Source of the DNA: Monocercomonoides exilis PA203 | Lineage: Eukaryota; Protista; Preaxostyla | Direction: 5' to 3' | Assembly (NCBI GenBank): GCA_001643675.2 | Contig: LSRY02000071.1 | Coordinates: forward strand, 1 to 64,000 | DNA length: 64,000 nucleotides | Part shown: positions 1,846-32,667 of the stretch, piece by piece | Position numbering within the stretch: position 1 is the stretch's first letter | Layout: each line of letters opens with the position of its first letter | Translations under genes and position numbers: made by a program | The notes under the pieces: generated by a model | Seen by the model: the letters and a program-made list of their open reading frames with translations, nothing else | Told to the model about the DNA's origin: nothing | Databases searched by the model: none

Positions 1846-3329
1846 AAGAGAAAAGCATCTTTTTCTTCAGTGCCACCAAATGGATACGGAACTCCAATGT
1901 TATTTGTCAACTGTTTTCCACAGAATCTCTTTTTCTTCTGTTGTCATTTCCTGTCTTCTTTCCAAATTCAATTTTCTCGCATATATTTTGAACACATGCA
2001 AGGGCTCCGGTATCAATAAAAAAACAGAAAAAATAAAGAAAAATTACAGACAACGAAAATAAATATATTTCAATATAAAAAAGATGAAATTAAAAAACAA
2101 AGTATTTTTATAAAAATAAAAATTAATAAATAAACTGTTCCTCTTTCTTTTTGCAATCTTCCTCTTCTCCTTCCTCTTCTTTTCCTGCCAGCCCCAGCCT
2201 ATTCAGCATTGCTTTCCTCCGTTCTTCACCTCGCAAACAGACCTCCCAGCCCTGTCACTTCTCAATGCTTCCAATGCTATTTCGTGCTATCCTCTCATTG
2301 CGCCAGATCAATCTTCACTTTTGTCAATCATTTTCACAAAAAAGCACATATCTCTTTGAAAATAAAACCATAAACAAACAAACAAATAAACAAATAAACA
2401 AATAAATATCGAATTCACAAACGCAACATGTGTCAACATCCAGAAATGATAACTGCCCCCTTCCGCTTCCCTTCCCCTCCTCTTCCCTGTCCTTTCCGCT
2501 CAACTCTCCCTCCCCCAGCAAAGCACACGACCCACACCCTGACCATTTGCTTCATCGCAGCAACACCAAAACCCCAAGATGTCACCTCTCTCAGCCATCA
2601 TTCACCCCATTTTTCTGCCATCTTCCTTTGCTCTTTCCTTCTCATCCCATCTGCTCCCCTCTCCTGCTGCCAATTTCCAACACTTCCACAGCCTTCATCT
2701 TTCTGTTGCCTCTTCGCCTTTTTCCCTCCTCCCTTTCATTCCTCTATTGATTTATTTCATTTTTTCATATGTAATTTTCCATTTTTCTCTCTTTCTCTCT
2801 CTAAAACATCACAATTCCCCAACCAACACTCTTCTGCTAGCATCCATTTCATTTGCAGTGTGCAACACTGCCCCCACCGTTACTGCCCGCAATACACATT
2901 ATCCACAACAAATCACAAGAATCAAAAAAACATAGCAAACACATCCTAACAACCTGCTGAAAACAAAAGGCAAAACATCCTCATCTTCTAAAATTTTCTT
3001 TCCTCTTGTCCTCCCTTCATCTCCACAATTCTCCCCAAAAAAACACACAAAACAATCCCAATTATCGAATTTGCCAACAACCCAGACATCAAATCCCTTT
3101 CAAATTCAAAACACCCACAACCACCTCGCCGTAATGCAAATAACAGCCGTCATTGCACATCCACCGGCCTTTGCCTCAGTGCTCGGAGTGTACCGAGAAA
3201 AATACAATTTGTCTATTCCAGTCTTCAATTATGCATACGATCGTCACAATTTTGAAAAAAAAGAAAAAACTGAAAACTACCTTTGTAAATGGGAGGGCAT
3301 CAGACAATAATATTTTATGGTGGATTTGC

Positions 3330-4180
3330 TGAATTATTGTTTTTGAAGGCGTCTTGTGCGACTGGGACTGGTGTTGAATTTGGAAAGACTTGAAGCGATT
3401 TTTGTACAAGAAAGGGGATGGAGCACCGATGCTTTGAAAATATTATATATATCACGGGATATATGTATTTCTGATAATTCTATATAATGTGAAGATATTT
3501 TCATCCGTATCCTTCCCAAGTCATGATTCGGACAATTTTATATTAAAAGTCAATTTATTTTTTTGAAGAGGACAATAGCAGGGAATCACACCAATATTAC
3601 CTACAAACAGCAAATATTAAAACATGAGGATTTTTTAACGAAAAATTTCACAGTTATTTTTGATGCAATATGCAATGGGTCGAAATGCAACGAAAAACGA
3701 GTTTTAATGGAGCAGAAATTCATGGAGTCGGAAAATGCCAAATACAAAAAGGAAGTGTGACCAATTTTTCTGAAAAGGCTGCCTTTTTTAAAAGAGGAAG
3801 AGGACATTTTCAGAAAATTTGTTGGAGGGATTGGAGTGGATGCATTGAATGGAAAATGGAGACAAGTGGCTGAAACAAGAGATTGGCGGTTGTTGCTGGA
3901 CGAATGGATTTTCTTGGGTTGATAAGGACAAGACAATATTTTTATGGACTGAGAAGAGTAGTGGAACTAAATTTGATTGCTTGGTTTGAGAGCGATAATG
4001 CAAGAAAAACAGGCAGTTCGGCGTAATACAAGCAGCTGGAGGCAAATGACAGGCAAAATGGATTTGAATCATTTTGCAATCGCCTTTGGCATTGTATCAT
4101 CGAAGGGTTATCCATTGAAGCAGAGAACGAGGTTTTTTTTGAAGCAATCTTCGACAGAAAATATCCGACATTAAAGATCT
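3330..4180 (+). pseudogene. Decayed ORF module of unknown function lying upstream of beta-helix genes
   Basis: Homologous by eye to 33967-34660(-) and 57330-57900(-). Shared relics include KEEEDIFRK, ELNLIAW and NRQFG(V/I)IQ(A/T)AGGK; many stops and frameshifts. Confidence 0.55.
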
Positions 4181-5015
4181 TTAAATCCTCTTCTACACTT
4201 TCAGTCTCATCGTTTTCTTCATCTTCATCCCCTTCATCTACTTCATTTCCTTCATCGAATTCTTCTCTGTCATTATTTTCAAATGCATCTCCTCAACAAA
4301 GAAATTATATATTTTTTCACCCCTTCTTGGTCATTATCTTCTTCTTCTTCACCAAATCGTTTTGAAGGATATTTGTTGAAAGAGTTATTTGAGAAGAAGC
4401 AGAACAGGAGAATGGAAATAGGATGTTTTTTTGGAGAAGCAGAAGAGAAGCAAAGCTGTTGAATGAATGATGGAAGATGGAGATGAGGGAAATGGGTGCT
4501 TTTGCAGAAAGAAAAAAATGATCTAGAGAAGAAGAAAGAAGAAAGAAGAAGAACAGAAGCAATGAAGAATAGAGATTGTCAAAGGCATGAACACATAATT
4601 TTTTTGAATAAAAGAAATAACATTTTATCAAACTTTTCTAATATATATTTTTATTTGAAATTAGGATCTTTTTGGAAGAATATCTTCGTTGGTTAAAAGC
4701 GCGAGGGATGAGGAAAGATGGATTTTGAGGCGATCCCGGGAAGATGGCAGAAGGCAGGAAATGGAATGGGCATAGATGAGTGAGCAAAGGGAAACATATG
4801 AAATGTGTGGAAAAGATGGGATTTGCGAAATGGAAAAGGTATTTTGAAAAGGGGGAGGGGAAGCGATAAAAGATAGAGAGAAGAGAAATTGATGATAAGG
4901 CAGAAGGAGAAATTTGAGAAATAATTGAGAAGAAGAAGGCATTAATAAGAAAACAGATTGAAAACGGATGAAAGGCGAGGAAATGGAGGAAAAAGGAATT
5001 TGAAGATAGAATGTT

Positions 5016-6710
5016 TTGAGGAGCATTTGCAGAAGAGTGGGAAAAAGGGAAGAGGATGAAAAGTTTGTTGTGGGGATGGGGAAGGATATTGAGGCAGGGG
5101 CATTTGATGTGAGTGGGAGCATTGGGGCGTTGACAAACATCACATTGAAAGGATGGAGAAGAGGGGGAGAGATATACTCGGGAAGGCTGTTTGGAGGGAA
5201 GGGATATGGAGGGGAGAAGGGTGGAGATGAAGAGAAAGGAGGAGAAAGAGGAGAAGGAGGCAGAGGAAGAGGAAGAAAAGGAGATGGATATGGAGAAGGT
5301 ATTGAAGGGAGTATTTCGGTGAGTGAATCACGATTCTCTTCTTTTTGTGTCTCATCAGCCCCATTCCTGTCATCCCCTTCAATACCCCTTGTATCCCTCT
5401 CCAAACTCACATTTTTCAACATCTCAACAGCAAATGATGCATGTTCACCTCCAACCACTGCATCAATCCAAACCTCTTGTTTTATGAACAGTTGTTCATT
5501 TTCGTCTGTTTGTGATGCATATGATGGCGGGATTGTTCCTTCTCTGAACAGCCCCTTGACTTCCTTATCTGTTTCGAACACATCATTCGTTGGATGTTGT
5601 CGGACAAGAAATGTTGTTTGTGAAGGAACTTCAGACAGAAAGTTGACTCCAGGGAGACAAAACGAAACAGAAAATGGAACGAATACATTCACTTGGTGCG
5701 AATGGAGTGGATCGAAAACAACAGGAGAAAGCGACTCGTATGCTGATGGAATATCGAGCGGAGGGGCCATCTGCATGTACAGTCAATCATCTGCCTCTGT
5801 GTCTGTTTCTCATTGTTCATTTAATGACTGCATGGCATATTATAATGGCGGGGGGATATTGTGCACAAATATAAGATCAGTGAACTTCGATAATAATTCA
5901 TTTAATGCTTGCAACGCACAGTACCACGAAGGTGGAGGCGTATTCATTTATGCGATTTCATTGTGTGCTCGAATCAGCAGATGCAAGTTCCAGGATTGCA
6001 AAGCAGTTAATTATGGAGGAGGGCTTTATCTTAATAATTTTAATATTTCAGGAACCGGATGCATTGAAGCAGAAAATGAAGGAGGGGAGAGTGCGTGTGT
6101 GTTTGACTGCAGTTTCACTTCATGTTCGGTTACAAATTATTATGGTGGAGGCATGCGTTGTTACAATGTTCCTAATCAATTCAAAATGAGGAGCATTCAA
6201 TTTATTTCATGTTCAGCATTAAGAGAGGGAGGAGGATTATTATTACAGCCAAATCGAGAAACAATACCAAATGATGGAATTCATTGTTATTTTTTGTTCT
6301 TCCATGAATGCAGCTGCAGGGATGCAAATAATCCACGTGGGCATGACGTTGAATATGTTGATTATTACAATCTGTATTTGGAATCAGGAAATCCATTTTA
6401 TGAATGTTACACCACAAACACAGATGAGAAGAGGATCTGCTTTGCATACAATTATGCAATTGCAAATGTTTGGACATATGACGAAATATCAAAAAAGGAT
6501 TGGCTGAAGAGAGGGATTCTCAATCGATTTGTGGCAGTGAGTGGAGGAAACGCAGAAGAGTTGTGTGGATTGGATGAGTCAAGTGCATGCAGAACCATTG
6601 GTGTTGCAGTTGAAAAGAGCGTGATTCAAGTGAGCCTGTCAGTCACGCTGATGGGAGGGGATCACACAAGCGAGACAACAACTATTGAGATTGGAACAAA
6701 AAAGATTTAA
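5016..6710 (+). CDS. Cys-rich right-handed beta-helix surface protein-like, copy B (probably truncated)
   Basis: 564-aa ORF with repeated F.xC.A..xGGG/GGA(I) rungs typical of Pmp/pectin-lyase-like beta-helices. It ends at KKI-TAA where paralogs read KKISVIG (TCA>TAA). The start is uncertain. Confidence 0.75.
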   Translation: MRSICRRVGKREEDEKFVVGMGKDIEAGAFDVSGSIGALTNITLKGWRRGGEIYSGRLFGGKGYGGEKGGDEEKGGERGEGGRGRGRKGDGYGEGIEGSISVSESRFSSFCVSSAPFLSSPSIPLVSLSKLTFFNISTANDACSPPTTASIQTSCFMNSCSFSSVCDAYDGGIVPSLNSPLTSLSVSNTSFVGCCRTRNVVCEGTSDRKLTPGRQNETENGTNTFTWCEWSGSKTTGESDSYADGISSGGAICMYSQSSASVSVSHCSFNDCMAYYNGGGILCTNIRSVNFDNNSFNACNAQYHEGGGVFIYAISLCARISRCKFQDCKAVNYGGGLYLNNFNISGTGCIEAENEGGESACVFDCSFTSCSVTNYYGGGMRCYNVPNQFKMRSIQFISCSALREGGGLLLQPNRETIPNDGIHCYFLFFHECSCRDANNPRGHDVEYVDYYNLYLESGNPFYECYTTNTDEKRICFAYNYAIANVWTYDEISKKDWLKRGILNRFVAVSGGNAEELCGLDESSACRTIGVAVEKSVIQVSLSVTLMGGDHTSETTTIEIGTKKI

Positions 6711-9700
6711 GTCATTGGGAAAAGAAGAGGATTCATCATCTTTGGAAATATCGGACTCACAATGGAAACATCATTGAGATGATGTTTATTGTTTGAGCAC
6801 TTTTAATTGCCAGCACAAGATTTTGAACAAAACATTTCAAGGCAATGGCCATGTGGATCTGCATTCTGTGCTTTGGAAGATGTTGAGCACCTGAGCCAGG
6901 AAAGCACAGAATGAATGATCGTTTTTGTTTCTTGAAGTGCTGAATGGCGATGGGAAGAGGAGTGCTTTCCACTTAGATCTGAGCAATTGGTTGTCATGTT
7001 AATGCTGCTGAAACGTATTGACAGGCAAAAGGGGTTTGAAGCATATGAAGCGGAAGATGGCAGGTTAAAGGTGCCTTTGAGGAATTTACTTGAACGGTGA
7101 TAAACAAATGAAGTGAGCCTTGGGGTTTGTTTGTTATTGGATGGAGAAAAGTATTGTTGGAAGAGAATAAGAGTGAAGCAGCGTTTGATTTGTTCATTAA
7201 TTTTAGAAGAGTTTTCTTTTTTTTTTTTTTTTTTCAATTTTTGCAAAAATCAAATGTATTGCCATTTTTGAGATATTTTGTGCTTATTATTCTTTTTCTT
7301 GAGTAGTTCTGATGATAAATAAGTGTGCAAAAATTAAAATTGACGAGATAAAATGTTTTAGGGATAATATGAATTGGGTATTGGATATGGACAAGGAAAT
7401 GGGGCATTTCAAACATTTTCATTGAAAAAAGTATCTGTGAAAAAGAATGAGAAAGAATTATTGCAATGAGCCCAAAATGGAGCCAAGAACAGAAAATATC
7501 GAGACACATCCAAACAGTTGTTTTAGAAAAATTCTTTATTCCAACTGTTCAGAGAGGATCAAGTCAAATGTGAAATTGAATTTTGTGTAAAACTCGAGAA
7601 ACATTTTCAAATCATCAAAAAGAGTCAGTTCTGATATGTGAGGATTTTGAAACACAAAAAAAAGGTGACTTTATTTTTTCTCTATTATTATTTTTAAAAC
7701 GACGATTTTCATTTTCATTTCCTTAATTTTTTGATTGTTTCTGAGGATTGTCAAAATGGTTCGAAGAGATGATGAAAAGAGAAAAAAAATGAAGATTTGG
7801 ACAAGCGATGCAATCAATTCAGATTAAAAATACAACAGGAATTAAATAATTTAAAACAGAGGTTTTCAACCTTGTTGGCTGTATCATGATTCAATTATCA
7901 TCCAAATCACTTTCTTTTGGAAAACACAAAATTTTTCAAATTTTTTTAGAAAATGAAACTGAGTGATTTGTTTTCACATCATTCTTTTTCTTTCAAGAAA
8001 TTTTAATTAAAGTATTGTTTTTATTTTTAACAAACGGATATGAAAAATAATGAAACAGCCTATTCTCAAGTTAATTATGTTCCGTTACATGTTTGTGGTG
8101 AATGCTTTATAATGAAAAACATGTTATTCTTTTTGAAACATCGCAAATGTTTGATTGACAAGTGGGAACACAAAACATCATTTGATCTATTTTGAAACAA
8201 ACTCTTCAAACTGTTCAAAGACACAATAAAAATGAAGTGGTCTTGTCTGCATATTGAAACTCGTATTTTTATTTATTTTGATTGGACGGTTTAAAGAATT
8301 CAGTCTAAAATATCAAGTTTTGTTTAACTTGAAAGCAAAACATTTGTGACTTTCCAAAAAGAATAACATATTATTTTTATTTTTCGAGAAATATGGGTAT
8401 TGTAATAGAGAGTGACAAAATATTGGAAAATTCTCGTTTTCTTCCAATAAAAAATTAACAAATTCGTATTTCTTCAAGAAAATACAAGATGCACATTTAT
8501 GTGATAATCACAACAAAGTCAAACTTGATTCTCATTAATATTCTTTCTTCAATATTTATTTGTACAGATAAAGAATTGAAGAGAGACAAAAGTGAATTTT
8601 CATATCAAATTTCATTTTTTTTTCCACAATTGTATAAAAATTGGTTTTTAACATGAAATAAATGGTTTTTTTCTTAAAAAAACTTCTTCATATTGCATCA
8701 TCCAAAACGTTATTTTTATTTCATCAAAACATTATTTCAACTGGATGAGCCAATTGACTTCAACTTAACTTGAAAATACAAGACAGTGAAATTAATCATT
8801 ATAAGAAAAATCAAAGTCAATGATTTTCATTGGTATAAATGAAAACATTATCATTTGGGTGATTTTTTTCATATCAAATTTTTCAACCAAAAAATTCGAT
8901 TTAAAAATTTATTTTTCATTATTTTTACGTGAACGCTGAATAGAAACAGAACGAATATCAGACTTATCTGTGTTACTAAAATAACAAACATCAATTTTTG
9001 TGACAATAGTTTCACGGTTAATTATTATATGAAAAACTTATTTTTAACAACAAAAATTGTGGATGATTATTTTCAAAGTCACAGATTTTTTATCAAACTT
9101 TTCGTTTAAAAAGTCTCTAAGAATATATGCATCTGAATTCTGAAAGTTAAAAACACAATTTTCAAATAGTTTTGTTGTGCACTCATTTCAAGCATAGGTT
9201 TTTGAAACAATTATTATTCATTTTTTATTAGAATTGAATACTTCTTGATAAAGACCAAAACCATCTGAAAAATTTGGACCCCCCAAAAAAGTTGTGATTT
9301 CAAAAATATTCACATTTATTCAGCGAATAATGAAAAATTATTATTCTTTTCCAAAAAACAACAATTTCGGAAATTAAAAAGTCAACAGGAAAAATTCAAA
9401 ACATTTGGATATTACACGTTTTTTGAATAAAAAAAATTAATAAAACAAGATCTTCGTATGTTGGTGTTATCCTTTCAAAAAATGGGCACAAATGTTAAAT
9501 TTTCTAATTAATTAAAATTTCCATGTTTTGATCAAATACTTGTTCATACTCACGAAACTACACAAAAATGAAAGTTATCACTTGATTAAATTATAACATT
9601 CATTATTAAGAAGATTTGCGAGCAGGAACAGAAATTTGATTAGGATATGAAAAATTTTTTTATATTATTAAGAATTAAACATCTGGGACAAAATTCTTGC

Positions 9701-10943
9701 ATTTGTGAAAAAACATAGATTTGAACAAAACTTTTTCTGCAATAACAGCAAAAAAAATCTTTTATTCACTGTTAAAAAGTATGCAAAATTAAAATATTGA
9801 GAAGAATAAAAGAAAATATTGAGTGGAACAAAATTCAAAAAATAATAAAAATTTGTCCCATATGTGATTTTTCAAAAAAAAAAGACACACATATTTTTCA
9901 GGAAACAAAGCTCAAATAGAACCAACAAAAACCAAAAAATGTCTAAAAAGAACACTTTATTGGTTCCTAAATAAATTGAAAACAAGCAAAAATTGTTTTT
10001 CAAAATAAATACATTTGAAGATATTTGAGTGACTCGCAAAGTTTTGATGAAAATTTTAATCAAAAATTGATCATTATGCAGTTTGCAATACCACCAATAA
10101 AAACAGAAATTGTGATTTTTCTGGATGTGACATATGTTGAAGACTTCACTTGTTCATCTTTCTCGATGCATAAGTGATGCATTCCATTTTATCATCACCT
10201 TTGCGCGCACATTTTCTGGTTATGTTTGTTTATTGTATGAGATTTATCGAAATGTTTGCTTGCCTTTTTTCATTTCTTGGAATGGCAATTCTAGATTTTT
10301 TCGTGAACTGCCTTTGATGTGTGCTTTTATAAATATCTGTTATTTTGTCCATCCTCAGCGCATTCAGGGTTGGAGAATTATTGTTTAGCCAAATTGTTGA
10401 GTTCTGCACCTGACAGCCTGGAGTATTGTTTATGCAGCAACCAAAGTGCATTTACTGAATTGCATAAGGCGAGTGGGCGGGGTTGCAATAAGCACTTGCT
10501 TGCATTATGTGGGAGAAGGAGGAGGAAGAGAAATATTGGGGGATCTTGTGGGCAAAAGTGTCCGAGAAGGGAGAAGAGAGGAAAATAGGTGTATTTGAAG
10601 TTGGATTGCGAAAAGCGAATGTCGAAAGGTAAGAAAGTGGTGAAAGAGAGTCATTCAGCTAAGATGCATGGTCAGTTATTGGAACGTTTCAGCGGAATTT
10701 GCTGTCTGATTGAGTCCAGTGTATGGAGAATAGAAGAGGAATGAAATGGTATTTCTTTATTGTGGGGAAGTTAATGGAGCGAGTGAAAGATGAGATGCGT
10801 TATGAATTCGAGGGGAGAAAAGAGGCTAAAAAGGCGATTGGAGCACGCTCGCATTATGGACTGGCCTTTTTGTTTCCCGCTCATTTGGTTCAAATGACAT
10901 CAAGATGAATGTGCACTTCGATTATTTTCAATAACATTATAAA

Positions 10944-11191
10944 GAGATATGGTATATCAGCTATTTATCCATCTCGATTAGGTCAATCAATATTATCGAC
11001 TTATGAATATCTAGTGGTTGTTATCATCTTGTATAATAAGTTGAATAGGCAATGATAATAAGATAAAGATCGATGATTATTGCTGATATACTTAGGGGCT
11101 TCTAATGATTAGATATTCAGTGATGTTCTATAAAGATGGAGTAATTGATAGGTGTAATCGAGATATATCCATAGCTGATATACCATATCTC
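10944..11191. other. Terminal imperfect fold-back hairpin (~248 nt) of the left TIR
   Basis: Stems: 10944-10964/11171-11191 (21 bp), 10971-10980/11155-11164 (10 bp), 10986-10991/11144-11149 (6 bp), 11004-11013/11110-11119 (10 bp), separated by internal loops. Confidence 0.88.
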
Positions 11192-11335
11192 CAAGGAGAA
11201 GAATTAGCAAAAACATTAACTGGAAGATTAACAAAAGTTATGTTCAAGTTGGTAAATTAGTGGTGAAATTGTGTGTTATCGTTAGTGAATAACATGAGTT
11301 CGCAACGAAGTTGTTTAGGAGACTTCGTCTCCGTT

Positions 11336-11400
11336 GAACATGTGTCGAACATGTGTCGAACATGAGTTGAACATGAGTTGAGCATGTGTTGAACCTGTTT
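11336..11400 (+). repeat. Six tandem 11-bp repeats, consensus GAACATG(T/A)GT(C/T); iteron/operator-like
   Basis: gaacatgtgtc x2, gaacatgagtt x2, gagcatgtgtt, gaacctgttt, about 60 bp upstream of the 76-aa ORF. Mirrored at 15675-15739. Confidence 0.85.
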
Positions 11401-11461
11401 GTGTTATCGTTGATGAAATCGTAAATAAAAATAATTGATTTTGTTTTTTGTTTTATAGTAA

Positions 11462-11692
11462 ATGGGTCGGAAGAAGATATACGCAACTGTGGAAGAAGCG
11501 AAAGAGGCTCAACAGAAACAAATTAAACAGTTTCAGGAAAAACGTAAGGAAGAAACTAAGTATTACAACGAACATGTAACTGAGAAACAGAAGAAATTGA
11601 TTAAGATATTGAGGAGAAAGCTTATCGAAAGTGATGAGTTGTTGGATGAGTTGATGGAAAAAGTTAATAGTTGTTTGCCCGCACCGGGTTGA
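11462..11692 (+). CDS. Small basic helical protein encoded in the TIR (76 aa), possible DNA-binding or terminus protein
   Basis: Intact ATG-to-TGA ORF, MGRKKIYATVEEAKEAQQKQ..., charged and coiled-coil-like, preceded by an AT-rich leader. Confidence 0.7.
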   Translation: MGRKKIYATVEEAKEAQQKQIKQFQEKRKEETKYYNEHVTEKQKKLIKILRRKLIESDELLDELMEKVNSCLPAPG

Positions 11693-12458
11693 TTGGGAAG
11701 TTAATGTGCAAATTGGTGGTATATAACAAGTGGCACACGTTCGTTGTACCGTTGATTGAATCAGACAGTAGTCACGATGACGTTATAGTTGATTGCCAAC
11801 ATCTATATTTTTGCTTGGAAAATGTGTCAATCGGTAGACCGGATACAGAATTGTAGCAATATCGAGATGCTGGGGGAAGGGAAATATTGGGTTAAATCTC
11901 CGTGCTGGAAGCGTAAACCGGTAAACCGGTAAACCGGATCTTTTAATTTCATCTGATAAGAGCTGCCAACATGCCATTTCTGCCAACATGAGCAATTTAC
12001 CCCTAATTTACCATGATTTTGAGGGTTTTTATTTATTTTCGACTGAATCAACATTTTGCCACATTGCCACATGATATCGTTGATGGCACACGCCAGTTAT
12101 ATCGTTGGTGATACACATCAGTTATATTGTCAGTTGTTCCAAACAGATGTTTTGCCTGCACCAGGTCGATGGGGCAGGTCATGTGGGTGATGCTGTGGCT
12201 GGGAAATATTGAGTAAAATCTCCGAGCTTTTCACCTGCACTGGATGCACCGGGTGCACCGGGTCAAATATATTCTCCAAAATATGTGGGCAAATAGGCAA
12301 ACTGGGCAAATAGGCAAAATATATTTAATGTAAAAATTAACTGTTATCGTTAATTTTCGAAATTAACTTCAACACCATCTTTCTCCGAAATGTTCATTTC
12401 AAAAATTATTCTGTTTCAAAAAAATTTTGTTTTTTTAATTTCTGTGAAATTGGCAACC

Positions 12459-14723
12459 ATGAGCAACAGCATAACGGAAACAATCGGTAACAACAGCCAA
12501 ACGGTTCAACTCCTAATTAGCATGGAAGAAAAATCATTGAATGAAAGAATTGTTTCAAACGTTGTTGATTTATTCAATTTTCAAAAGCATGATGGAGGCA
12601 GTGGCTCTGTTGTTACTGGAAGAGCAGTATTGGTAAACAAAGTGTCAAATTTAACTGTTATCGACATTGACATTAACAAATCTTTTGACGACGATTCCAA
12701 ACAATCTATAAGATCAAACATATTAAACAAACTTGACGAAGACGATGTTGTTGTTCAAACAGCTTCTGGGGGATTACACATTTATGCAAATACCGATGAC
12801 TTTTACGCCAACTCCAACAGAATGATTAAATGTTACACTTGCGATGAATTTGATGGAGATATCATGACATCGTTGGACAAGAGCAAACGATCATTAATTG
12901 TATTACCAAACAGAAAAGTGCGTAAGGATCATCGATCAAAGACAAATGTTTATCAGCTTGTTAGAGGTTCGTTTGACTCAGCAATTACACGAAATGTTAA
13001 TGATATATTGAACGATCTCTCATTGATACTGTATATAAAAACATCCGACGAAATAGATAATATTGTTAAATTAGACAACGACAATGACAATATCAGTGAC
13101 GAATTAGCTAATGTTTTTGTCAACGTGTTGGAGTGTTTTGTCATACATAACGATGGGGGAAATATGCCAGTCAACAGAGAAGTCACGTTTTTCACACTGT
13201 TTCAAGCAATTAATTCATTATCGAATAAGCATATCGAATTAGCTCACGACAGAGCACAAATCAGTTTCAATTTGACAGTTTAGGCTCGTGAAAACTATTA
13301 CACTGCAAAACAACGATACAGATGTTTGAGATCATCGCCATTTGTGTTTGTTAAGATGAATAATATTAGGAATAATAACTATTACACAAACGAGATATTG
13401 CCGTAACTGACAAACGATATCCATGTCGTTAAACTGTTAGATTTGTCAGATTCGTTTTCCATGACAGACATTCGACGAAAAGCTGAGACAAAACAATATA
13501 AAAACGCTGATGATGTTATCAGTGATTTGTCGAGAGTTATTCGATTTATTGAAACAGGGGCGATGTATATACAAAAAGATTTCAATATATTCGATAAACG
13601 TTGGGGGATAACATTTGTTACAGACACAAATATGACACGTAACTTAAAGATGATTAAACTGTGGAAAACTGAACATCAAACAACAACAGCATATGACATT
13701 CTACTGTCTTGTTTGTCGAAACTGACATTGCAGGGTGTAATGTTTAACGCAAAAGATACAGCTAATGAATTCTCGATATTTCAAGGTTTCAAGTACAATT
13801 TACGGGAACATGTCGATATGGAAACAATCTCAATGTTTCTGGACTTTGTTCGTGAGGTAATTGCTGATTCTAACAACGATGTATATGAATATGTTATTAA
13901 CTGGATTGCCAACATTGTTCAACATCCTGGAATAAAAAATGAAACAGCATTGATATTGAAAGGTATTCAAGGAATTGGGAAAAACAGATTCACTGATGTT
14001 ATATCTGAACTATTCGCTGGTTATTCCAGTCGAAATGTCACAGAAGTTGGAGAATTGACTGGAAACTTCAACTCTGTTGTTGAAAGCAAAATGTTGATTG
14101 TATTGAATGAACTGAAAAATTGTGGAGACGACAGACTGGCAAATTTCAATGCGTTGAAGTCTGTAATAACAGAAAACATTATTAGAATAAACGAGAAGAA
14201 TCAACCTCGAAGAACCGCTGAGAATGTTGCTAATTTTATATTTGTGACAAACCACTCATTTCCAGTAAAGATTGAAACAGGCGATCGAAGATATGTTGTT
14301 CTTGCATGAAATGGTAAATACAAGAACAATTTCGATTATTTCAAACAGCTATGTTCTTCATTTACGACAGAGTTTTATGATTATTTGCTCACATATTTGA
14401 TGAACAAAGACCTTTCATCATTTAACGTTAGATTAATGCCGATGACAGAGGCTAAAATCGATATTAATGAAGTAAGAAAAAGTCCGTTGGAAATGTGGAT
14501 TTGTAATCATCACGACGAGCTATGTGTTGGAATGAATTGTACAGAAGCTCTCCTCTGCAAACCTGTTGTAATAAAAGAAAGGAACTTCCAAATGCAACTG
14601 AAAGATGAATGTGAACGTAAACAGAACTCAATTATTGGAACACGTTTTTGGTATTAAATATTGAAAGTTGAGTGCAAACTGTCGCACAAACATATTGTAT
14701 CTGACGATGAGGATAATCAATAG
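12459..14723 (+). pseudogene. AEP/Prim-Pol primase-polymerase fused to SF3 (D5/NrS-1/DUF5906-like) helicase; ~754 aa with 4 in-frame stops
   Basis: ORFs 12390-13283, 13443-14309 and 14385-14657 share one frame. AEP motifs VIDIDIN and TASGGLHIY; Walker A GIQGIGKN; Walker B LIVLNE; motif C IFVTN; Arg finger DRRY. Stops at 13281 TAG, 13404 TAA, 14307 TGA and 14655 TAA; final TAG at 14721. Confidence 0.88.
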
Positions 14724-14763
14724 AAACAGAAATGTTACTGTTATATTTTTTCACGTTTTTCCG

Positions 14764-16133
14764 ATTTGCCCAGTTTGCCTATTTGCCCACATATTTTGGA
14801 GAATATATTTGACCCGGTGCACCCGGTGCATCCAGTGCAGGTGAAAAGCTCGGAGATTTTACTCAATATTTCCCAGCCACAGCATCACCCACATGACCTG
14901 CCCCATCGACCTGGTGCAGGCAAAACATCTGTTTGGAACAACTGACAATATAACTGATGTGTATCACCAACGATATAACTGGCGTGTGCCATCAACGATA
15001 TCATGTGGCAATGTGGCAAAATGTTGATTCAGTCGAAAATAAATAAAAACCCTCAAAATCATGGTAAATTAGGGGTAAATTGCTCATGTTGGCAGAAATG
15101 GCATGTTGGCAGCTCTTATCAGATGAAATTAAAAGATCCGGTTTACCGGTTTACCGGTTTACGCTTCCAGCACGGAGATTTAACCCAATATTTCCCTTCC
15201 CCCAGCATCTCGATATTGCTACAATTCTGTATCCGGTCTACCGATTGACACATTTTCCAAGCAAAAATATAGATGTTGGCAATCAACTATAACGTCATCG
15301 TGACTACTGTCTGATTCAATCAACGGTACAACGAACGTGTGCCACTTGTTATATACCACCAATTTGCACATTAACTTCCCAATCAACCCGGTGCGGGCAA
15401 ACAACTATTAACTTTTTCCATCAACTCATCCAACAACTCATCACTTTCGATAAGCTTTCTCCTCAATATCTTAATCAATTTCTTCTGTTTCTCAGTTACA
15501 TGTTCGTTGTAATACTTAGTTTCTTCCTTACGTTTTTCCTGAAACTGTTTAATTTGTTTCTGTTGAGCCTCTTTCGCTTCTTCCACAGTTGCGTATATCT
15601 TCTTCCGACCCATTTACTATAAAACAAAAAACAAAATCAATTATTTTTATTTACGATTTCATCAACGATAACACAAACAGGTTCAACACATGCTCAACTC
15701 ATGTTCAACTCATGTTCGACACATGTTCGACACATGTTCAACGGAGACGAAGTCTCCTAAACAACTTCGTTGCGAACTCATGTTATTCACTAACGATAAC
15801 ACACAATTTCACCACTAATTTACCAACTTGAACATAACTTTTGTTAATCTTCCAGTTAATGTTTTTGCTAATTCTTCTCCTTGGAGATATGGTATATCAG
15901 CTATGGATATATCTCGATTACACCTATCAATTACTCCATCTTTATAGAACATCACTGAATATCTAATCATTAGAAGCCCCTAAGTATATCAGCAATAATC
16001 ATCGATCTTTATCTTATTATCATTGCCTATTCAACTTATTATACAAGATGATAACAACCACTAGATATTCATAAGTCGATAATATTGATTGACCTAATCG
16101 AGATGGATAAATAGCTGATATACCATATCTCTT
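14764..16133 (-). repeat. Right terminal inverted repeat (1370 bp), including terminal hairpin 15884-16131
   Basis: Reverse complement of 10942-12311; ends ...TACCATATCTCTT followed by CATTAT. Confidence 0.95.
15383..15613 (-). CDS. Second identical copy of the 76-aa TIR protein
   Basis: Translation identical to 11462-11692. Confidence 0.7.
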   Translation of the reverse strand: MGRKKIYATVEEAKEAQQKQIKQFQEKRKEETKYYNEHVTEKQKKLIKILRRKLIESDELLDELMEKVNSCLPAPG

Positions 16134-16929
16134 CATTATTATCTTCTCCAACTTCATCTTTATCAGCAGCACAAAGAAAAAAATTAAAAAGATGAGATCA
16201 AACGAAAATTCGAAAAAATTGCAATTCTGTTTAATCGTTTTCATGTTTGTGTGTTTTCCATGTTTTTATTTTTTTTAAAAAAATGACTTTGTTAAACAAT
16301 TTGAATTGATTTATTTACCAATTTCTTTCAGTTTTCTTTGTTTGGAAAAGCATTTTTTATATGATTTGATTTTTTTATTTTTTATTAAATATATTTATTT
16401 TTATTTTTTTATTTTTGCTTCACTTCATTTTGATGGCTTTTTGAATTTTCTCGAAACACTCCATTTTTGTGTAAAAAAGAAAATCTTTTGCATTTCTTTC
16501 TCTTTGTTTCATCCTTTCTTCCTCGCTTGATTGTCTGCCCTTTTTCTTTTTTCACTTTTCCTATTGCTCGTTCCTTTATTTGTTGTTTGTTCATTGGAAT
16601 CAATACTGCAATTGCCCCTGCGAAAACCGTTTCTGTCTCTTTTTGCATGGAAGCGAGATGGGATTTGTCCAACACAGAGTGCTTCTCAACGGATGCAGTT
16701 TGCCTTTGAGCAAGGCAGTCAACTCCAAGCACGATTAACAAGAAAATTAATTGAAAAAAATGGAAAATAACAAAGATGAATGAAATCTACAAAAAGGAGC
16801 AATTGTGATTGCGCTTTTGCTTGTTTTGCCGAAAAAGAGAAATGCTGCAAAGCCTTCAAAAACGATGAAAGTGAAGTGCATAAAGCTTCATTTGATCAGC
16901 AATTTTGTCAATAATAGATGCATTGATAA

Positions 16930-18204
16930 TTACTGCATTATAAGAGAAGAAAGCGCCAAATCATGATGAATGAGACACAGAGCAGACTCTTCATTCCCTT
17001 CTTCCGCCTTCTGCTCTGCCACCCTTCTCTCTTTATCTCTTATTCCTTTTTTGCCTTTTCGCTTTCTTTTCCCTTCCCTTCTTGTTCTCCAGTCTGCTGG
17101 CAAAGTTCTCTGAAAAAACGATAAACAAACCTCAATCTGAGCGCATCCAACTTCTGATCGAGCGATCTCTTCCAAAATGCCATCGATGGCTCTGTCTTTC
17201 ATTAACCCTTCAATTTCTATCAATCTGCCATCTGTTGCTCCATAGAACAAAACAAATCCATTCCTTCCCCATTCCTCTCTTGTTATCCTTCGCTGCTCCA
17301 ATTGCCCCAGCAACCCTGATGATATACTCTGAATATTCCTTGCTCCACAATGCGCATGAGCACAAGAAAGACTCCAATGCTCGCAGCCATCTCTTCAAAA
17401 GAATCTCTTTTTCTCATTATCTTCTTTCTTCTTCTTCTCTCTCTCTCCCTCTCATCCAATTCCTTTGTTGCCTCCTTCCCAAAATCAGGCTCATTCAAGG
17501 TGACTGTTTCCAATGATCCATCGCAGATAAACATGGCTAATCAAAAACTCCCAAGCTGATCGAAACTCACAAGCCCAGCCAGATTGTTGTGCTCTGGAAG
17601 ATACTCCATGATTCCCTCCAGCTCCTTCAGGGATCCTTCTCTTTCTGTCGTCTATTCCATATTTTCTCTATTTTCTGAAAAATAACAAAAATAACAATCA
17701 AAAAAATGTTTCAAACCCAATGTCATTGACACACCTCAAACTCAGCAAAGCCATATCCACTTCTGTTTGTATCTCCTCATAGTGCTCTCTCTTCAGCAAA
17801 GCTTTCGCAAGGCAAGGCACACAAATCGAAAGCAATCCAGGCGGGTAGTTTTGACTCAGAGAATCATGGCATTCGCAAAGATCAGTCACCTGCTTTTCCT
17901 TCTTTCTCTTCTTTCTCCTCAGTTTCATCAGCAATCATTCCTATCAACTTTTCTGTTCAACTCAGAAAAAATGAAAGCGACGATTAAGGATCCTCTTCAT
18001 TATTTTATTACATCCACCAACCTTCAATATCACGACTGAATTTTCTGGTGAATATTTTCTTTTTCTCCATCTTTTTCTGCATTCTGTTGAGCAGCTCTGT
18101 CGCAAAAACGGATTGAAATTCATCAATATACATCCACTCCATAACATCCAAGGGGTTTTCTGTTTCTGCCCATCCTCCGCGAAATCTTCAAGCCCACAAA
18201 ACAA
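16930..18204 (-). pseudogene. Fragmented member of an expanded alpha-helical (ARM-like) host protein family
   Basis: Pieces such as VTDLCEC..SL....LLSICVPCL.KAL.K.E..EE.Q.EV.MALL.L and FGKEATKELDE resemble a very large family I recall from Monocercomonoides; the frames are broken. Confidence 0.5.
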
Positions 18205-19844
18205 TTATTCATCAAAAATTCAATCAAAGAAAAATAATAATAAAAAAAAAAGAAATGAAATTGACAAAAAGTCCATTAAAATAATGTCTGCAGACCATAA
18301 ACATCTATTTGTGCAATGTGCAGCCTGCATTTTTGGAAATGCACTGCAGCCAGAAAGAAATGCCATTTCGCCATTCACATTGAACGAGCCCACGCCTGAA
18401 CAGAAGAAACAGGCAAATAAATACAATGTTATGCAATCACAAAAATAGCTGCGCTCGCGCCATCCTATTTACTGTTGGTATTTTTTGACTTGCATCCAGG
18501 AAGAAAAACAACGGTTTGTAACTTGAGTCTTTTTTGTAATGGATTCAATGATCATCAGATTTGAAAAAACGGAATATTCCATCACAGAATGAGAAATCCG
18601 TGAGGGAGCATGACCTGTAGAACTAGAAATATTATTTCCTGTGGAGGCAACAAGAAACGAGGCAATGCAATATTTTTGGAATTCTGACCTTTGATTGTTG
18701 GTAATTGGATGGCCAAGGGGAATACACCAATTTCATCAATAACACAAAAAGATATAATGTATGCAATTTATATTGTTCTATATGTTGTGAAGATATTTCC
18801 ATCTGTATCCTCTCCAAAGTGCAGGAATCCGAATTATTGTTGAAATGGCCAATCTCAGCTTTGGAGAGCAATATGATGAGAATGGAGCAGATTATTATAT
18901 AGGCATTGGGAAATAAATGAAGTTACGGAAGATATATGATTTTTATTTGGAACAAGAGGTGAAAACAAATTCAACTGATGTTTTATTGAATGAAGATTTA
19001 TGGATGGAATTCTGTGAAGGACAAAATCTGCACAAAATTATATAGAATTTGAGAGCATAAGGCAAAGGAGAAGCTTTTTTGGCAAGGAAAGTGGGTGGAA
19101 ATATCGAGGGAAGGATATTTTTCAAATGAAAGGAATGAAAATATTGCAAAGCAATCAGAATGGAGCTCGATATTACGACATAAAATATCGTCAACTTCTT
19201 TTCTGCAATTAGAAGAAAAGAATGATGCTGTGTGGAGGTTTTATCGACCATCAAAGAAGACAACTCAGTTTTCCTCAACACAGAATATGAAGGATGTCTT
19301 TTGGTTTTGGCTCAGTAGTTTGTCTGACTGATTTTTTAGATAAAATTGCATGGAGGAACACAGGGCAATGTTGTTTTCTCATCATCTGTGTTTGGGGCAT
19401 ATTGAACAGGAAGTAACAAGGGCATTGTCATTTTGTTTTGATCTGCTTCAACTTCATCAGGACCTGCAGAATGCTTTGCAATCGCATTCATCTTCTTCTT
19501 CTATTGGTATATTTTTTGCCTTCTCGCAGCAGCACAGCCAGAGTTGGGATCAGCTGTTTCCCAAATGTTGAAGTCTGAGGCAAGGCCGGAAATCCAATGT
19601 TTGTCCTTCTTGATATTTTTTCAATAATTATTTATTATTTTTTTAAATTTTTGGAATCTTTTATCTTCTGCTCTTTTTGCGATGCTTGGAAAGAAGGGAG
19701 GTTATTTTATTTTTTGTTTATCTTGTCTTTTCACTTGAGGCACACGCCTTGCTGCTCGGTGTTTGAGAGGCAGAGAATTGAGCAGAAACAGCAGAATGAG
19801 AAGAACAGAGGAAATTCTCTCTGAATCTGAATCTGAATATGAGA

Positions 19845-19894: not shown

Positions 19895-20837
19895 GAGGAT
19901 GAGGATGAGAGAGGCAGCAGACTTCATTTGCATCATGAAATGCATGGGTTTTTATTCGCCTTTTTGGGGAGCAGTTTAATGGAAATGCTGTGCTTGTTTT
20001 TTTGTTTCAGCTGTTCTGGCAAGGGAAGAAGCATAGAAGGAAAGATTGGACAGAAAGAAAGGACTGGCAGATGGACGGATGGTCAAGAAGAATTTTTTTG
20101 AAGATCTGATTCCAAATGCATGGAACGGGGAAATACAGTCACAGAGCATGTTTTCAATTCTGGGATGTGCTTCGATTAATGGCAAGGCTAAGGCAAGAGA
20201 AAAAGAACGTTTGAACTTGTTTGATTTATCAATCAACGCTCATGAGTTTTGAAGACAGAAGTGTGTTTTCAAAAAATTTCAATCAGATGAATGTTTGGCA
20301 GAAGAAGAATATGGAGGAGAAGAAAAAATTGGAACATGGAAAAGGATATTGCCATAATAAAGGTTTTTTTTTTTTTCTTATTTTTCAAATAAGAATTATT
20401 ATTTTTTTCTTCAGGAATAATGATGTTTGCTGTTGTGTTCAATGCCTTTGGACGAGCATGGAATGAAGAAAGACTGGCTTTTGAGCACTTTTGTCAATAA
20501 TAGCAGGGCGCTTCGATTGAAAAGCTTTTGAGCAGGCTATACGGGGCGTTTGTTGTTTTTGTATGTTTCTGCAGAAGCATACAGAATGGAAAAAGGAATT
20601 TCACCTGATGGTTTTGCAAAGCCTTTTTACTGGAGCAGCTGAAGAAGAGACAAGCGAAGACAAAAAACGGAATTCAATCCTATTGGGATATTTTGCGGGA
20701 TTGAGCCAAGAGGAAAAGCAAGCCATTTGGAGGGAATTCTGAAGCGAGACTCATGAGAGCAGAAAAATGAAGAATTTCTGTGAGCGAATTGCATTTCTCA
20801 TCTTCAACAGCATTTCTTTCATCATCTTCAATCCCTC

Positions 20838-22925
20838 TTGCTCTCCAAACTCACATTTTTCAACATCTCAACAGCAAATGATATATGCTCACCTTCAACC
20901 ACGATGTCAACCCAAACATCATGTTTTATGAACAGTTGCTCCTTTTCATCAGTCTGCAATGGGTATGATGGCGGGATTATTCCTTCTCTGAACAACCCCT
21001 TTGCCTCTTTGACCACCTCGAACACCTCGTTTGTTGGATGTTATCGGACAAGGAATGTGAAATGTGAAGGAACTGCAGAGGTACCATTGAAACCAGACAG
21101 ACAGAACGAAACATTCAATGGAGCGAATGAGTTCATTTGGTGTGAATGGAATGGATCGAAAACAACAGGAGAAGTTGACGATAAAACTGATCGTACTTCA
21201 AATGGCGGAGCAATCAACATGAACAATTTGGCATCTGCCTCAATTTCTATTCAGCATTGCACGTTCGACAACTGTTATGCGCATTATGGAGGCGGGGGAG
21301 TCATATGCCGGCAAATCAAAGCATTTATTGCTGAAGACAATACATTCAATGCATGCACAGCTCTAAATTTCTATGGAGGAGGGTTGTATGTTTATTATAT
21401 AACTTCGTGTGTTCGGATCAGCGGATGTGAATTTCAGAATTGCAAAGCAAATTATTATGGAGGAGGGCTTTATCTTGAAAATTTTCAGGTTTCAGGAGCA
21501 GGATGCATCCCAACAGAAAATGGAGAAGGGGAGAGTGCATGTGTGTTCGACTGCAGTTTCACTTCATGCTTTGTTGAAAATGCTAATGGTGGAGGCATGC
21601 GTTGTTATAATATTCCTGTTCAAGTCAAGATAAGGAGCATTCAGTTTATTTCATGCAATGCATCATCAAATGGGGGAGGATTGAGTGCGGATCCACGTAT
21701 GACAACAGCGCCAAAAGATGGATATTATTTTTATTTCTTATTTTTTCATGAATGCAAATGCAGAAATGCAGCCAATCCATATGGGCACGATATGGTATAT
21801 TTTGATTATTACAATGTCTTTTTGTCTTCTGAAAATCCATTTCATGAATGTTACACCACAAATACAGATGAAAAGAGAGTGTGCTATGGATATAATGCAT
21901 CGAATTCTGGGAGTTGGGCATATCAGCACACGGAAAAGAAGGATTGGCTGAAAGACAAGACGATCTATGTTTCTGTGAATGGAAATGATGCATCTCCACT
22001 TTGCGGGTCAAATGAATCAAATCCGTGCAAAACGGTGAAGAAGGCGTTTGAGATGTGTGAGGTGCAGATAAGCTTGGCAATCACATTAATGGATGGGAAT
22101 CACACAAGCGAGGCAACAACAATTGAGATTGGAGAAAAGAAGATTTCAGTCATTGGGAAAGGCAAAGATAAGAGTTCGATTGGAACAGGAGCCCTTTCAT
22201 TATCATCAGCAGCTGGAGCGCTGTTCAGTGTGACAACAGGTCACATTGGTTTATTGCACATGAAGGTTGATTGTAACTCAAATTTAAGTCCTTCTTCGCC
22301 GAGTGTGGTTGTGGTGTCTGATGGGAGTGGGTCACTCTCATTGGAGGATGTGATCACCACGAGTGTTTCTTCAGGAGACTATGTGATGTCTTCGTCAGTG
22401 TTTGTGGTGCCGCTGTCACAGCTGTCGATGGTTGATGTGGAGATCAAAGATATGAATGTTGCAAAACCATTGTTCTCTGAGCTGGATCTCTCTTCTCCTT
22501 CTTCTTCTTCATTGTCGTCATTGTCGTCATCTGCACTGTATCTGACAGCCACAGCATCAGGAGATAGTGTGCTGGCGAATGTGAAGGTGACGAATGTGAA
22601 GTTGACTGAAGGAGATGGGGTGGTTGTGGCAAAGAGTGTGAAGGCAGGAGAGACGTTCGGGATGATGAGCACGAGAACAGAAGGGGAGCAGAGTGGTTGT
22701 ATATTTGGGAAGGGAGATTCTGAGATGTATTTTTGGTCACATGTGAAATTGGAGGGAGGAATAAAAAATCATAGGTGCGTTGCGATTTTGTTTCTGTTTT
22801 GTTACAACTCGTGCAACCCACATAAAATAAGCACCATCACTGCTGTAAAACACGAAATCTCCTGTTTTATCAAAGAAAGGAAAATCGGTTTTATTTGTGA
22901 AAAGGAAAGGAAGAAAGGTGAGTAA
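20838..22925 (+). CDS. Cys-rich beta-helix surface protein-like, copy C
   Basis: 695-aa ORF with family motifs. Homology continues upstream through a frameshift and a TGA at 20768. The tail after ..AGETF looks unrelated to the family. Confidence 0.75.
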   Translation: MLSKLTFFNISTANDICSPSTTMSTQTSCFMNSCSFSSVCNGYDGGIIPSLNNPFASLTTSNTSFVGCYRTRNVKCEGTAEVPLKPDRQNETFNGANEFIWCEWNGSKTTGEVDDKTDRTSNGGAINMNNLASASISIQHCTFDNCYAHYGGGGVICRQIKAFIAEDNTFNACTALNFYGGGLYVYYITSCVRISGCEFQNCKANYYGGGLYLENFQVSGAGCIPTENGEGESACVFDCSFTSCFVENANGGGMRCYNIPVQVKIRSIQFISCNASSNGGGLSADPRMTTAPKDGYYFYFLFFHECKCRNAANPYGHDMVYFDYYNVFLSSENPFHECYTTNTDEKRVCYGYNASNSGSWAYQHTEKKDWLKDKTIYVSVNGNDASPLCGSNESNPCKTVKKAFEMCEVQISLAITLMDGNHTSEATTIEIGEKKISVIGKGKDKSSIGTGALSLSSAAGALFSVTTGHIGLLHMKVDCNSNLSPSSPSVVVVSDGSGSLSLEDVITTSVSSGDYVMSSSVFVVPLSQLSMVDVEIKDMNVAKPLFSELDLSSPSSSSLSSLSSSALYLTATASGDSVLANVKVTNVKLTEGDGVVVAKSVKAGETFGMMSTRTEGEQSGCIFGKGDSEMYFWSHVKLEGGIKNHRCVAILFLFCYNSCNPHKISTITAVKHEISCFIKERKIGFICEKERKKGE

Positions 22926-23997
22926 TTTGATGGAACATCAACGATTTATTCTTTCTTTGAAAAAATAGAGTATTTGGGTTAATTCATAATTTTCGATGTT
23001 TTGCAGAAACAAAAAAAAGTGGACAAGTTTCTTTGTTGAATCCTTCTATTTTTTCAATGTAACAATTCATATGATTTTTATTTTTTTATTCATTAGCCAA
23101 CTGCTTTTGAATGATTTTTCAGACAACAAAGTTTTTCTTTAAAAAAATTTCAGTCCTTTCTTTTTTTTCATTCTTTTTTTTTTTCAAATGTAATTTTCAC
23201 AACAACTTTTTTTTTATTACAAAATGAAAAAATCAAACAGTTTCCTTGTTTGAAAAGAAATATGAAATTTCGGAACAAACTGTTGAAGAATTTCAAAAAT
23301 GATTTGTTGATGAACAAACAAACAAATGGATAAAAATATGGAAAGAATGAACATAAGATGAGAGCATTTTCGCAGCAACAGATGAATGAAAAAGGAAAAC
23401 GATAACTTTTTTTTGTATTTTTGTCAAATAATATCAAATTCTTCTGATTTATCAATCACTCGTTTTCATTTTTACAGGGGGGTGGGGAAATGAAAATAAT
23501 TATTCATTGAGAAATCAGAGGAATTAGAAAATGGGTTTAATCATGATTCAAATGAGAAATATTTATCAAAATGAAAAATAAAAATTAAAAAATAAATCAA
23601 ATCTTTTTTATTAGAAATAATTTTTCTTCGTTAATGTTTTATTTTATTATCTTTATTTTTCAATCTCAACCACAAGGCACTCAATGACATTCAAAGTTAT
23701 GATTTCAAAATTAATCACCCATATTGATTTTTTTTGGAATTGAATGTTTCTTTTAAGCTTATTTTTACTTTCATTTCTTTTTTATCAGTACAAATTATTC
23801 TTTCACAAAGCGATGAAAAAAAAGTTTTTGAAATGCATCAACACTGATTCATTTGTTCTTTTTATGTTTTTATTTTCCAATTTCAATTTTAATAGTTTAT
23901 TTTGATGAGGGAGATTGTTCATCTTATCCCACAAGTTTTCTGTCTAAAATATAGGTTTGAAATTGAGATTGGGATACTTTGAAATGGAAACTTGAAA
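20842..23997 (+). repeat. Left arm of ~3.1-kb inverted duplication
   Basis: Mirrors 29344-32498 (coordinate sum ~53340; e.g. ORF 23168-23455 equals 29885-30172). Confidence 0.92.
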
Positions 23998-32300: not shown

Positions 32301-32498
32301 ATCCAACAAACGAGGTGTTCGAGGTGGTCAAAGAGGCAAAGGGGTTGTTCAGAGAAGGAATAATCCCGCCATCATACCCATTGCAGACTGATGAAAAGGA
32401 GCAACTGTTCATAAAACATGATGTTTGGGTTGACATCGTGGTTGAAGGCGAGCATTCCGATGTTGCTGTTGATATGTTGAAAAATGTGAGTTTGGAGA
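29344..32498 (-). repeat. Right arm of ~3.1-kb inverted duplication
   Basis: Reverse complement of ~20842-23997 with few differences. Confidence 0.92.
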
Positions 32499-32667
32499 GA
32501 AAAGCAAATGACATCGAGGGAGTTGAGAGGAATGTGGTTGAAGATGAGATAAGAGATTTGCATGTCGAAATACTTCTTTCTTTGCCTCCTTCTCTTCCCC
32601 TTGCCTCTTGGAGCCATCTCGCAAAATGTCTTAATAAGCTCACATTCCATTGTCTTGCCTCTTCCAC
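30415..32667 (-). CDS. Cys-rich beta-helix surface protein-like, copy D (near-identical to C)
   Basis: 750-aa ORF; differs from C in the N-terminus and at SMNGND..CGANESNPCLTV versus SVNGND..CGSNESNPCKTV. Confidence 0.75.
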   Translation of the reverse strand: MEEARQWNVSLLRHFARWLQEARGREGGKERSISTCKSLISSSTTFLSTPSMSFAFLSKLTFFNISTATSECSPSTTMSTQTSCFMNSCSFSSVCNGYDGGIIPSLNNPFASLTTSNTSFVGCYRTRNVKCEGTAEVPLKPDRQNETFNGANEFIWCEWNGSKTTGEVDDKTDRTSNGGAINMNNLASASISIQHCTFDNCYAHYGGGGVICRQIKAFIAEDNTFNACTALNFYGGGLYVYYITSCVRISGCEFQNCKANYYGGGLYLENFQVSGAGCIPTENGEGESACVFDCSFTSCFVENANGGGMRCYNIPVQVKIRSIQFISCNASSNGGGLSADPRMTTAPKDGYYFYFLFFHECKCRNAANPYGHDMVYFDYYNVFLSSENPFHECYTTNTDEKRVCYGYNASNSGSWAYQHTEKKDWLKDKTIYVSMNGNDASPLCGANESNPCLTVKKAFEMCEVQISLAITLMDGNHTSEATTIEIGEKKISVIGKGKDKSSIGTGALSLSSAAGALFSVTTGHIGLLHMKVDCNSNLSPSSPSVVVVSDGSGSLSLEDVITTSVSSGDYVMSSSVFVVPLSQLSMVDVEIKDMNVAKPLFSELDLSSPSSSSLSSLSSSALYLTATASGDSVLANVKVTNVKLTEGDGVVVAKSVKAGETFGMMSTRTEGEQSGCIFGKGDSEMYFWSHVKLEGGIKNHRCVAILFLFCYNSCNPHKISTITAVKHEISCFIKERKIGFICEKERKKGE

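Follow-up and report, generated by a model that had tools for sequence, protein, structure and literature searches.

The question raised by this locus of Monocercomonoides exilis PA203 is what kind of mobile DNA is represented by a ~5.2-kb element with very long terminal inverted repeats around a single primase-helicase gene. The element lies in the first 64,000 nucleotides of contig LSRY02000071.1 (assembly GCA_001643675.2), and this whole 64-kb stretch is called the window here. The original prediction regarded the element as a candidate new class of eukaryotic mobile replicon, a minimal linear plasmid or satellite, and mentioned a derivative of a larger Polinton-like virus as the alternative. 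The element was confirmed to be real and well bounded. The explanation that we favor, at about an even chance, is that one dead copy of a multicopy element sits here in the chromosome, and that this element is likely a replicase-only satellite of metamonad Polintons (Mavericks), which would copy itself from its ends and would need the integrase of a helper to insert.

The two arms (10942-12311 and 14764-16133) show no mismatch over 1370 bp and account for 53% of the element; between them lies a core of 2452 bp. The left terminal fold-back at 10944-11191 has a folding energy of -39.4 kcal/mol (z -6.22). None of 200 shuffled sequences was as stable, and the fold-back is the most stable among 17 segments of 250 nt covering arm and flank. 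Both arms contain an open reading frame (ORF) of 76 aa, whose sole homologue found is M. exilis MONOS_17995 (91% identity). It has no Pfam or PHROGs family above the cut-off and no Atlas match of 0.9 or higher. The longest ATG frame within an arm is 81 aa, and there is no further long arm frame. Inverted repeats exceeding half of the element, terminal fold-backs and a small ORF duplicated in the repeats had all been predicted and are borne out. An Rfam scan of 10500-16600 gave no match, and no further copy of the element was found in the window.

The core is one primase-helicase frame of 754 codons, as predicted, but four premature stops interrupt it, which neither the title nor the reasoning of the original prediction mentioned. 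The gene is dead in the present copy. In addition to the stops, 18 of 182 conserved columns are altered. Among the best-supported 40 of ~1500 differences from other copies, 20 are in the gene, and 14 of these are non-synonymous. A genetic code in which TAA and TAG encode glutamine was considered and rejected, because none of the four stop columns holds a glutamine in the homologues and because TGA is among the stops.

The protein combines a predicted archaeo-eukaryotic primase (AEP) of the primase-polymerase (PrimPol) type with a superfamily 3 (SF3) helicase, the domain pair that had been expected. Pfam assigned the core protein to PF19263 (DUF5906, NrS-1-type helicase; E 8e-21). The structural model of an intact homologue, P0004 (mean pLDDT 84.6), matched the C-terminal region of NrS-1 best (E 1e-20). 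The model of the first 274 residues aligned with pRN1 ORF904 (3m1m; Z 10.0, root-mean-square deviation 3.3, 147 residues aligned) and with NrS-1 PrimPol (7rr4; Z 8.1). All 30 aligned homologues retain the DxD, H and D catalytic residues (D69, D71, H107 and D134) unchanged. The models thus identify the gene product as a pRN1/NrS-1-type PrimPol joined to an NrS-1-like SF3 helicase, with a predicted polymerase activity.

Nothing else of a replicating or integrating apparatus is encoded. Inspection of the ORFs revealed no frame for an integrase, nickase, resolvase, HUH protein or capsid, and frames and Pfam together revealed no pPolB, retroviral-type integrase, packaging ATPase or capsid gene. A DDE transposase is also absent from the frames. 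The PrimPol-SF3 frame fills the whole core, and the element has no room for integrase, capsid and ATPase genes.

Other copies were observed in short-read contigs from four runs (X1 to X4) of one sample aligned to the element region. In the three runs listed for this position, eight contigs (X1), five (X2) and seven (X3) have loose ends before 10943. Agreement before this position is just 0.51-0.61, which indicates that the flanks differ. As the contigs align inward from 10943 and their outer letters are unrelated, 10943 is the end of the family and there are several insertion sites. The element therefore belongs to a mobile family that occurs in multiple copies and has a definite end, and its predicted mobility is upheld. 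In all four runs, diverged copies (12146-12424, with 37-40 differences) continue beyond the arm into the gene's 5' side. Joints in other copies stop at 12311 and 12319, the inner arm border. Summed contig depth drops ~3- to 6-fold from 12290-12344 to 12345-12399 in all four runs, a weak sign as contig depth cannot rank parts. Many arm variants in the reads bear deletions or tandem duplications. The strand-related joints listed are deletions and tandem duplications and not fold-back ends, and no strand-changing joint is among them. A tandem duplication of ~625 bp in other copies, corresponding to 11734-12311 and ending exactly at the inner arm border, was observed in all four runs.

The ends are 5'-AG...CT-3', with AGAG as the first bases at 10943. 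This end agrees with the (AG)3 motif of vertebrates for four bases and then departs from it (PMC8097293). AG-type ends and 6-bp target duplications are traits of Mavericks (PMC8097293). The 6-bp target duplication of the original prediction is only partly supported. The duplication is real, and CATTAT flanks the element on both sides (6/6), but this perfect match requires asymmetric ends at 10941 and 16133. With the family end (10943/16132), the flanks match at 7 of 9 positions; another register gives 7 of 8. A perfect 6-mer would arise by chance in any of six registers with a probability of 0.4%, or 1.1% at AT-rich positions. The length of the duplication may be 6, 8 or 9 bp, and it would indicate which enzyme integrated the element.

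The 9-bp reading brings in transposons of the Mutator/Foldback type, which have long inverted repeats and could have captured a Polinton primase-helicase as cargo. Mutator elements have long repeats and duplications of 8-11 bp (PMC6446971), in which range the 7/9 match would fall, and the plentiful arm variants with deletions and tandem duplications also suit such an origin. We consider it quite improbable. No transposase is present in the element and none was found linked to its ends in a search that left partner genomes outside, and the parabasalid Mutator group has repeats of only 20-38 bp (PMC6446971). The perfect 6-bp match and the AG...CT ends fit a Polinton too, and an entire intact replicase family across many samples would be atypical cargo.

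It is very improbable that the inverted repeat is an artefact of assembly or polishing. Such an artefact would account for identical arms around a decayed core, and the right flank junction is not among the bridging short-read pieces listed. The left junction, however, is spanned by contigs in two of the four runs (X2 and X4), with at least 31 letters on each side and 0-1 differences. A 189-nt arm contig without any difference reaches a depth of 68.8 in X1, where two exact flank contigs have 25-26. This is about twice the single-copy depth, and thus two identical arms fit and a polishing artefact is disfavored. The two flanks differ from each other and carry the target duplication. Near-identity is also seen in two further inverted duplications of the window, with 23 mismatches in 2898 bp and 5 in 272 bp. 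In a search for empty sites, paralogous left flanks ended at 10936, and none of the joins listed led to the right flank.

The predicted replicase is not unique to this element. The homologue search yielded 82 proteins, each representing a cluster at 90% identity, from 7987 candidates. Most are 740-790 aa long and 49-57% identical to the protein of the element, and they are intact, unlike its own gene. Named homologues come from Trichomonas vaginalis (198 members), Histomonas meleagridis and M. exilis; all but one of the T. vaginalis members listed are on chromosome-scale contigs. A profile search extended to a much wider family. In the viral contig collection, neither the homologue alignment nor a search with P0051 found a relative, and the terminal motif was unmatched. 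Another alignment profile retrieved two distant loci from it, one of which (L008) is a tailed phage. The plasmid collection contained 15 distant, helicase-only matches with at most 30% identity. In the M. exilis homologue P0077 (MONOS_9167), the C-terminal part closely resembles the window protein, but divergence is much greater in the N-terminal primase part; a domain swap inside one host is a possible cause.

The connection to Polintons comes from the neighbors of the homologues. L005, a 9.4-kb contig (1-9384) binned in a sheep-gut genome, carries a homologue with 57% identity to the protein of the element, 85 bp from a DUF4108 gene, and also has pPolB and an A32-like ATPase. No inverted repeat was found in it. 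Its 837-aa protein was called pPolB from an Atlas match of 0.91 and a 98% relative with PF03175 (E 2e-9); the protein itself has no Pfam, PHROGs or PDB sequence match. In a FastTree tree of 78 proteins, from which short fragments were excluded and whose inner branches are weakly supported, the L005 homologue nests within the clade of the window and T. vaginalis proteins. This tree places the internal gene in a Polinton gene clade. In L001 and L002, a helicase part with 48% identity lies between an A32 ATPase and an HNH gene. L003 has a 37% homologue with one divergent neighbor and no repeat. DUF4108 marks the class-3 Mavericks of T. vaginalis, and 8.6% of 1705 Mavericks of this class carry a "Poxvirus D5 protein" (PMC12289875). 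L005 was binned into a bacterial genome and annotated as Bacilli, and it is likely a contamination from a eukaryotic virus; motif C of its pPolB looks degenerate by eye.

The sizes of the contigs carrying homologues are only suggestive of a stand-alone unit. The count comprises, for each of 13 clusters, up to 15 of the full-length members listed, and omits partial members and the clusters of P0004, P0007, P0057, P0060, P0068, P0071, P0077 and P0078. Contigs no more than 500 nt longer than the gene account for 50 of 110 homologues and none of 10 pPolB controls, and the median excess over the gene is 552 nt against 2855 nt; cluster members are not independent, and a single small pPolB family served as the control. 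The excess over the gene is 55-328 nt in all 16 Logan-only contigs and 187 nt in the core of the element. Inverted repeats adjoining the gene would make assemblies break in this way.

These data bear on the possibility that the element arose by a rare, perhaps one-off, internal deletion in a full Polinton-like virus with a primase-helicase at its left end, all that separated the stop of the gene from the right arm being lost or the left end mirrored rightward. We regard this as unlikely. L005, L001 and L002 place the gene or its helicase part among Polinton genes, and primase-helicases often adjoin the terminal repeat in Polinton-like viruses (PMC11296320). The decay of the present copy and the many deleted arm variants in the reads agree with it as well. 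Against a single deletion, the right arm starts just 40 bp past the stop of the gene, the joints of other copies share the inner arm border, where the weak depth drop also lies, and the homologue contigs have tight sizes, unlike the pPolB control.

The same abundance of homologues could reflect a class of free linear plasmids in gut metamonads, with their own PrimPol-helicase and fold-back ends, that are occasionally captured by chromosomes or Mavericks. This is improbable in our judgment. Many of the 82 clusters are full-length, most on contigs of 2.3-3.5 kb and several on contigs of 5-7 kb, whereas the pPolB family of L005 has only 3 clusters, and the catalytic residues are invariant. The copies seen are nevertheless integrated, their defined end and target duplication point to an integrase, and the T. 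vaginalis members sit on chromosomes. The absence of fold-back ends from the strand-related joints listed and of a resolvase or nickase gene from the element also speaks against free plasmids. The phage locus L008 contributes one case to their support: its primase-helicase gene, 24% identical, is directly preceded on its 5' side by a 200-bp fold-back (4217-4419, z -10). This fold-back is a possible origin of the same design.

For a replicase-only satellite of metamonad Polintons, the direct support consists of the arms, the fold-backs, the shared AG...CT end, the target duplication, the protein folds, the stops and the occurrence of the gene clade in a Polinton-like contig. In an intact copy, the SF3 helicase would load at the terminal fold-back and unwind from there, and priming and extension would both fall to the PrimPol, with no need for a terminal protein. 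The displaced strand could re-form the end by pairing its own arms, and such pairing during strand-displacement copying would keep the arms alike. The integrase of a helper, acting in trans, would insert the duplex. The present copy probably decayed after insertion. Conversion, which likely held the arms identical, is the best explanation for their identity beside a decayed core. M. exilis has six Polinton-type capsid loci (PMC10120064), and therefore helpers may exist.

Several observations weigh against this satellite. No inverted repeat lies beside the gene in any of the four eukaryote-type loci with neighbors (L001, L002, L003 and L005), and three of these (L001, L002 and L005) are multigene and Polinton-like. 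The "Poxvirus D5 protein" of class-3 Mavericks would be the family of the element, judging only from the names of P0060 and P0077. No helper with the ends of the element was identified, partner genomes being outside the search. The short contigs could also stem from transcripts or, in multicopy Mavericks, from a cassette that is optional; P0049, which shares 99% identity with the protein of L005, is on a contig of 2786 nt, and certain homologue contigs reach 12-19 kb. The 9-bp reading of the duplication, with 7 of 9 matches at the family end, fits Mutator better than a Polinton integrase. No second complete arm-gene-arm copy was seen in the short-read pieces listed, and the 3' junction of other copies is not among them.

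A wider possibility, which we put forward as speculative and unlikely, is that gut metamonads carry widespread and unrecognised 5-kb linear replicons. These would have one PrimPol-SF3 gene and repeats with fold-back ends, replicate without a terminal protein, persist free, ride on Polinton integrases and donate replicases to Mavericks. The present copy itself is a fossil. The family is a well-bounded candidate unit: its ends are defined, it occupies several insertion sites, many of its relatives are intact, and the protist that hosts it can likely be cultured. It opens to experiment the questions of whether one PrimPol-helicase is enough to copy a linear replicon of a eukaryote from end to end and whether satellites of Polintons exist.

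Table 1. Coordinates of the element and its parts in the 64-kb window.
Feature	Position	Strand	Remark
Left target-site duplication region	10934..10942	.	6-bp core CATTAT at 10935-10940
Left terminal inverted repeat	10943..12311	+	5'-AG start; extra complementary base at 10942/16133
Left terminal fold-back, 248 bp	10944..11191	.	outer 21 bp pair perfectly
76-aa Lys/Glu-rich ORF, left arm	11462..11692	+	
PrimPol-SF3 helicase pseudogene, 754 codons	12459..14723	+	premature stops at 13281, 13404, 14307, 14655
Predicted AEP PrimPol domain, residues 26-193	12534..13037	+	D69, D71, H107, D134 retained
SF3 helicase core (DUF5906)	13956..14291	+	Pfam
Right terminal inverted repeat	14764..16132	-	identical to left arm
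76-aa ORF, right-arm copy	15383..15613	-	
Right terminal fold-back, mirror of left	15884..16131	.	
Right target-site duplication region	16133..16141	.	6-bp core at 16134-16139

The window contains other repeats. The 2898-bp inverted duplication (20885-23782 and 29558-32455) carries a cysteine-rich surface-protein-like gene and surrounds 5.8 kb; near-identical inverted repeats seem to be common in the host genome. An AT-rich inverted repeat of at least 272 bp (63317-63588 and 63729-64000), with a 140-bp spacer, leaves the end of the window, and no similarity between this repeat (63317-64000) and the element was found. A multigene family whose repeats are GGG-rich and Cys-rich is present in at least eight copies, on both strands, at 500-7000, 20800-23000, 30400-38000 and 49500-62000. 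On the minus strand, 39917-45277 is a frame of 1786 codons composed almost entirely of Glu/Ser/Lys runs and is likely low-complexity repeat DNA. The region 17800-19000 has very high summed contig depth and many loose ends, and another high-copy repeat starts near 18500. Unclassified repeats constitute 35% of the M. exilis assembly (PMC8767320). No description of the element was found in the literature on Monocercomonoides and Trichomonas, with Repbase and subscription journals outside the coverage, and the available text of PMC8767320, PMC7845603 and PMC6431247 does not mention such an element under the terms searched.

Several known systems resemble the element in part. Parvoviruses and densoviruses are ~5 kb long, have inverted terminal repeats that fold back, and encode a capsid and a Rep combining an HUH nickase with SF3. 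The likeness is architectural only: the N-terminal domain of the element matches AEPs, and the element has no HUH or capsid frame. The parvovirus-like architecture in the original prediction thus holds for the layout of repeats and fold-backs, but no frame for an HUH nickase or resolvase accompanies it. Phage NrS-1 polymerase and pRN1 ORF904 also combine PrimPol and SF3 helicase folds in one protein. Both are prokaryotic, with 12-19% identity to the protein of the element, whose activity is a prediction.

Transpovirons are likewise small capsid-less replicons tied to larger DNA viruses. They have 6-8 genes and an SF1 helicase and are associated with mimiviruses (PMC3671162), whereas the element has one large gene and an SF3 helicase. 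Mutator/Foldback elements, including Pack-MULEs, share the long inverted repeats and possibly a 9-bp duplication; unlike them, the element has no transposase, and its single gene is a viral replicase. AEP-SF3 replicases were proposed to move alone ("moonlighting") in a preprint that names one AEP-only element (bioRxiv 10.64898/2026.10.13.758929). The present element may be set apart from that case by its 1.37-kb arms, its terminal fold-backs, its target duplication and its presence at several insertion sites within one sample.

Polintons/Mavericks, in particular the class-3 families of T. vaginalis and L005, resemble the element in their AG...CT ends, in long inverted repeats at the termini and in a target duplication, and their primase-helicase is of the same clade (57% identity). 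They differ in size (15-26 kb against 5.2 kb) and in the pPolB, integrase, ATPase and capsid genes that the element does not have. Their arms measure 100-130 bp (class 3) or 500-900 bp (classes 1 and 2; PMC12289875), against 1370 bp here. The designation as a new class was overstated, considering the AG...CT ends and the same clade in L005. It is weakened further as AEP-SF3 is a common and often swapped replicase of Polinton-like viruses (bioRxiv 10.64898/2026.06.19.733378; PMC11296320) and AEP-only elements are already proposed in print. A derivative of a Polinton-like virus, originally offered as the alternative, is at least as well supported as the reading then preferred. By the criteria of these groups, the element is not an autonomous Polinton/Maverick, a parvovirus or a transpoviron, and it is its ends and its gene that tie it to the Polinton world.

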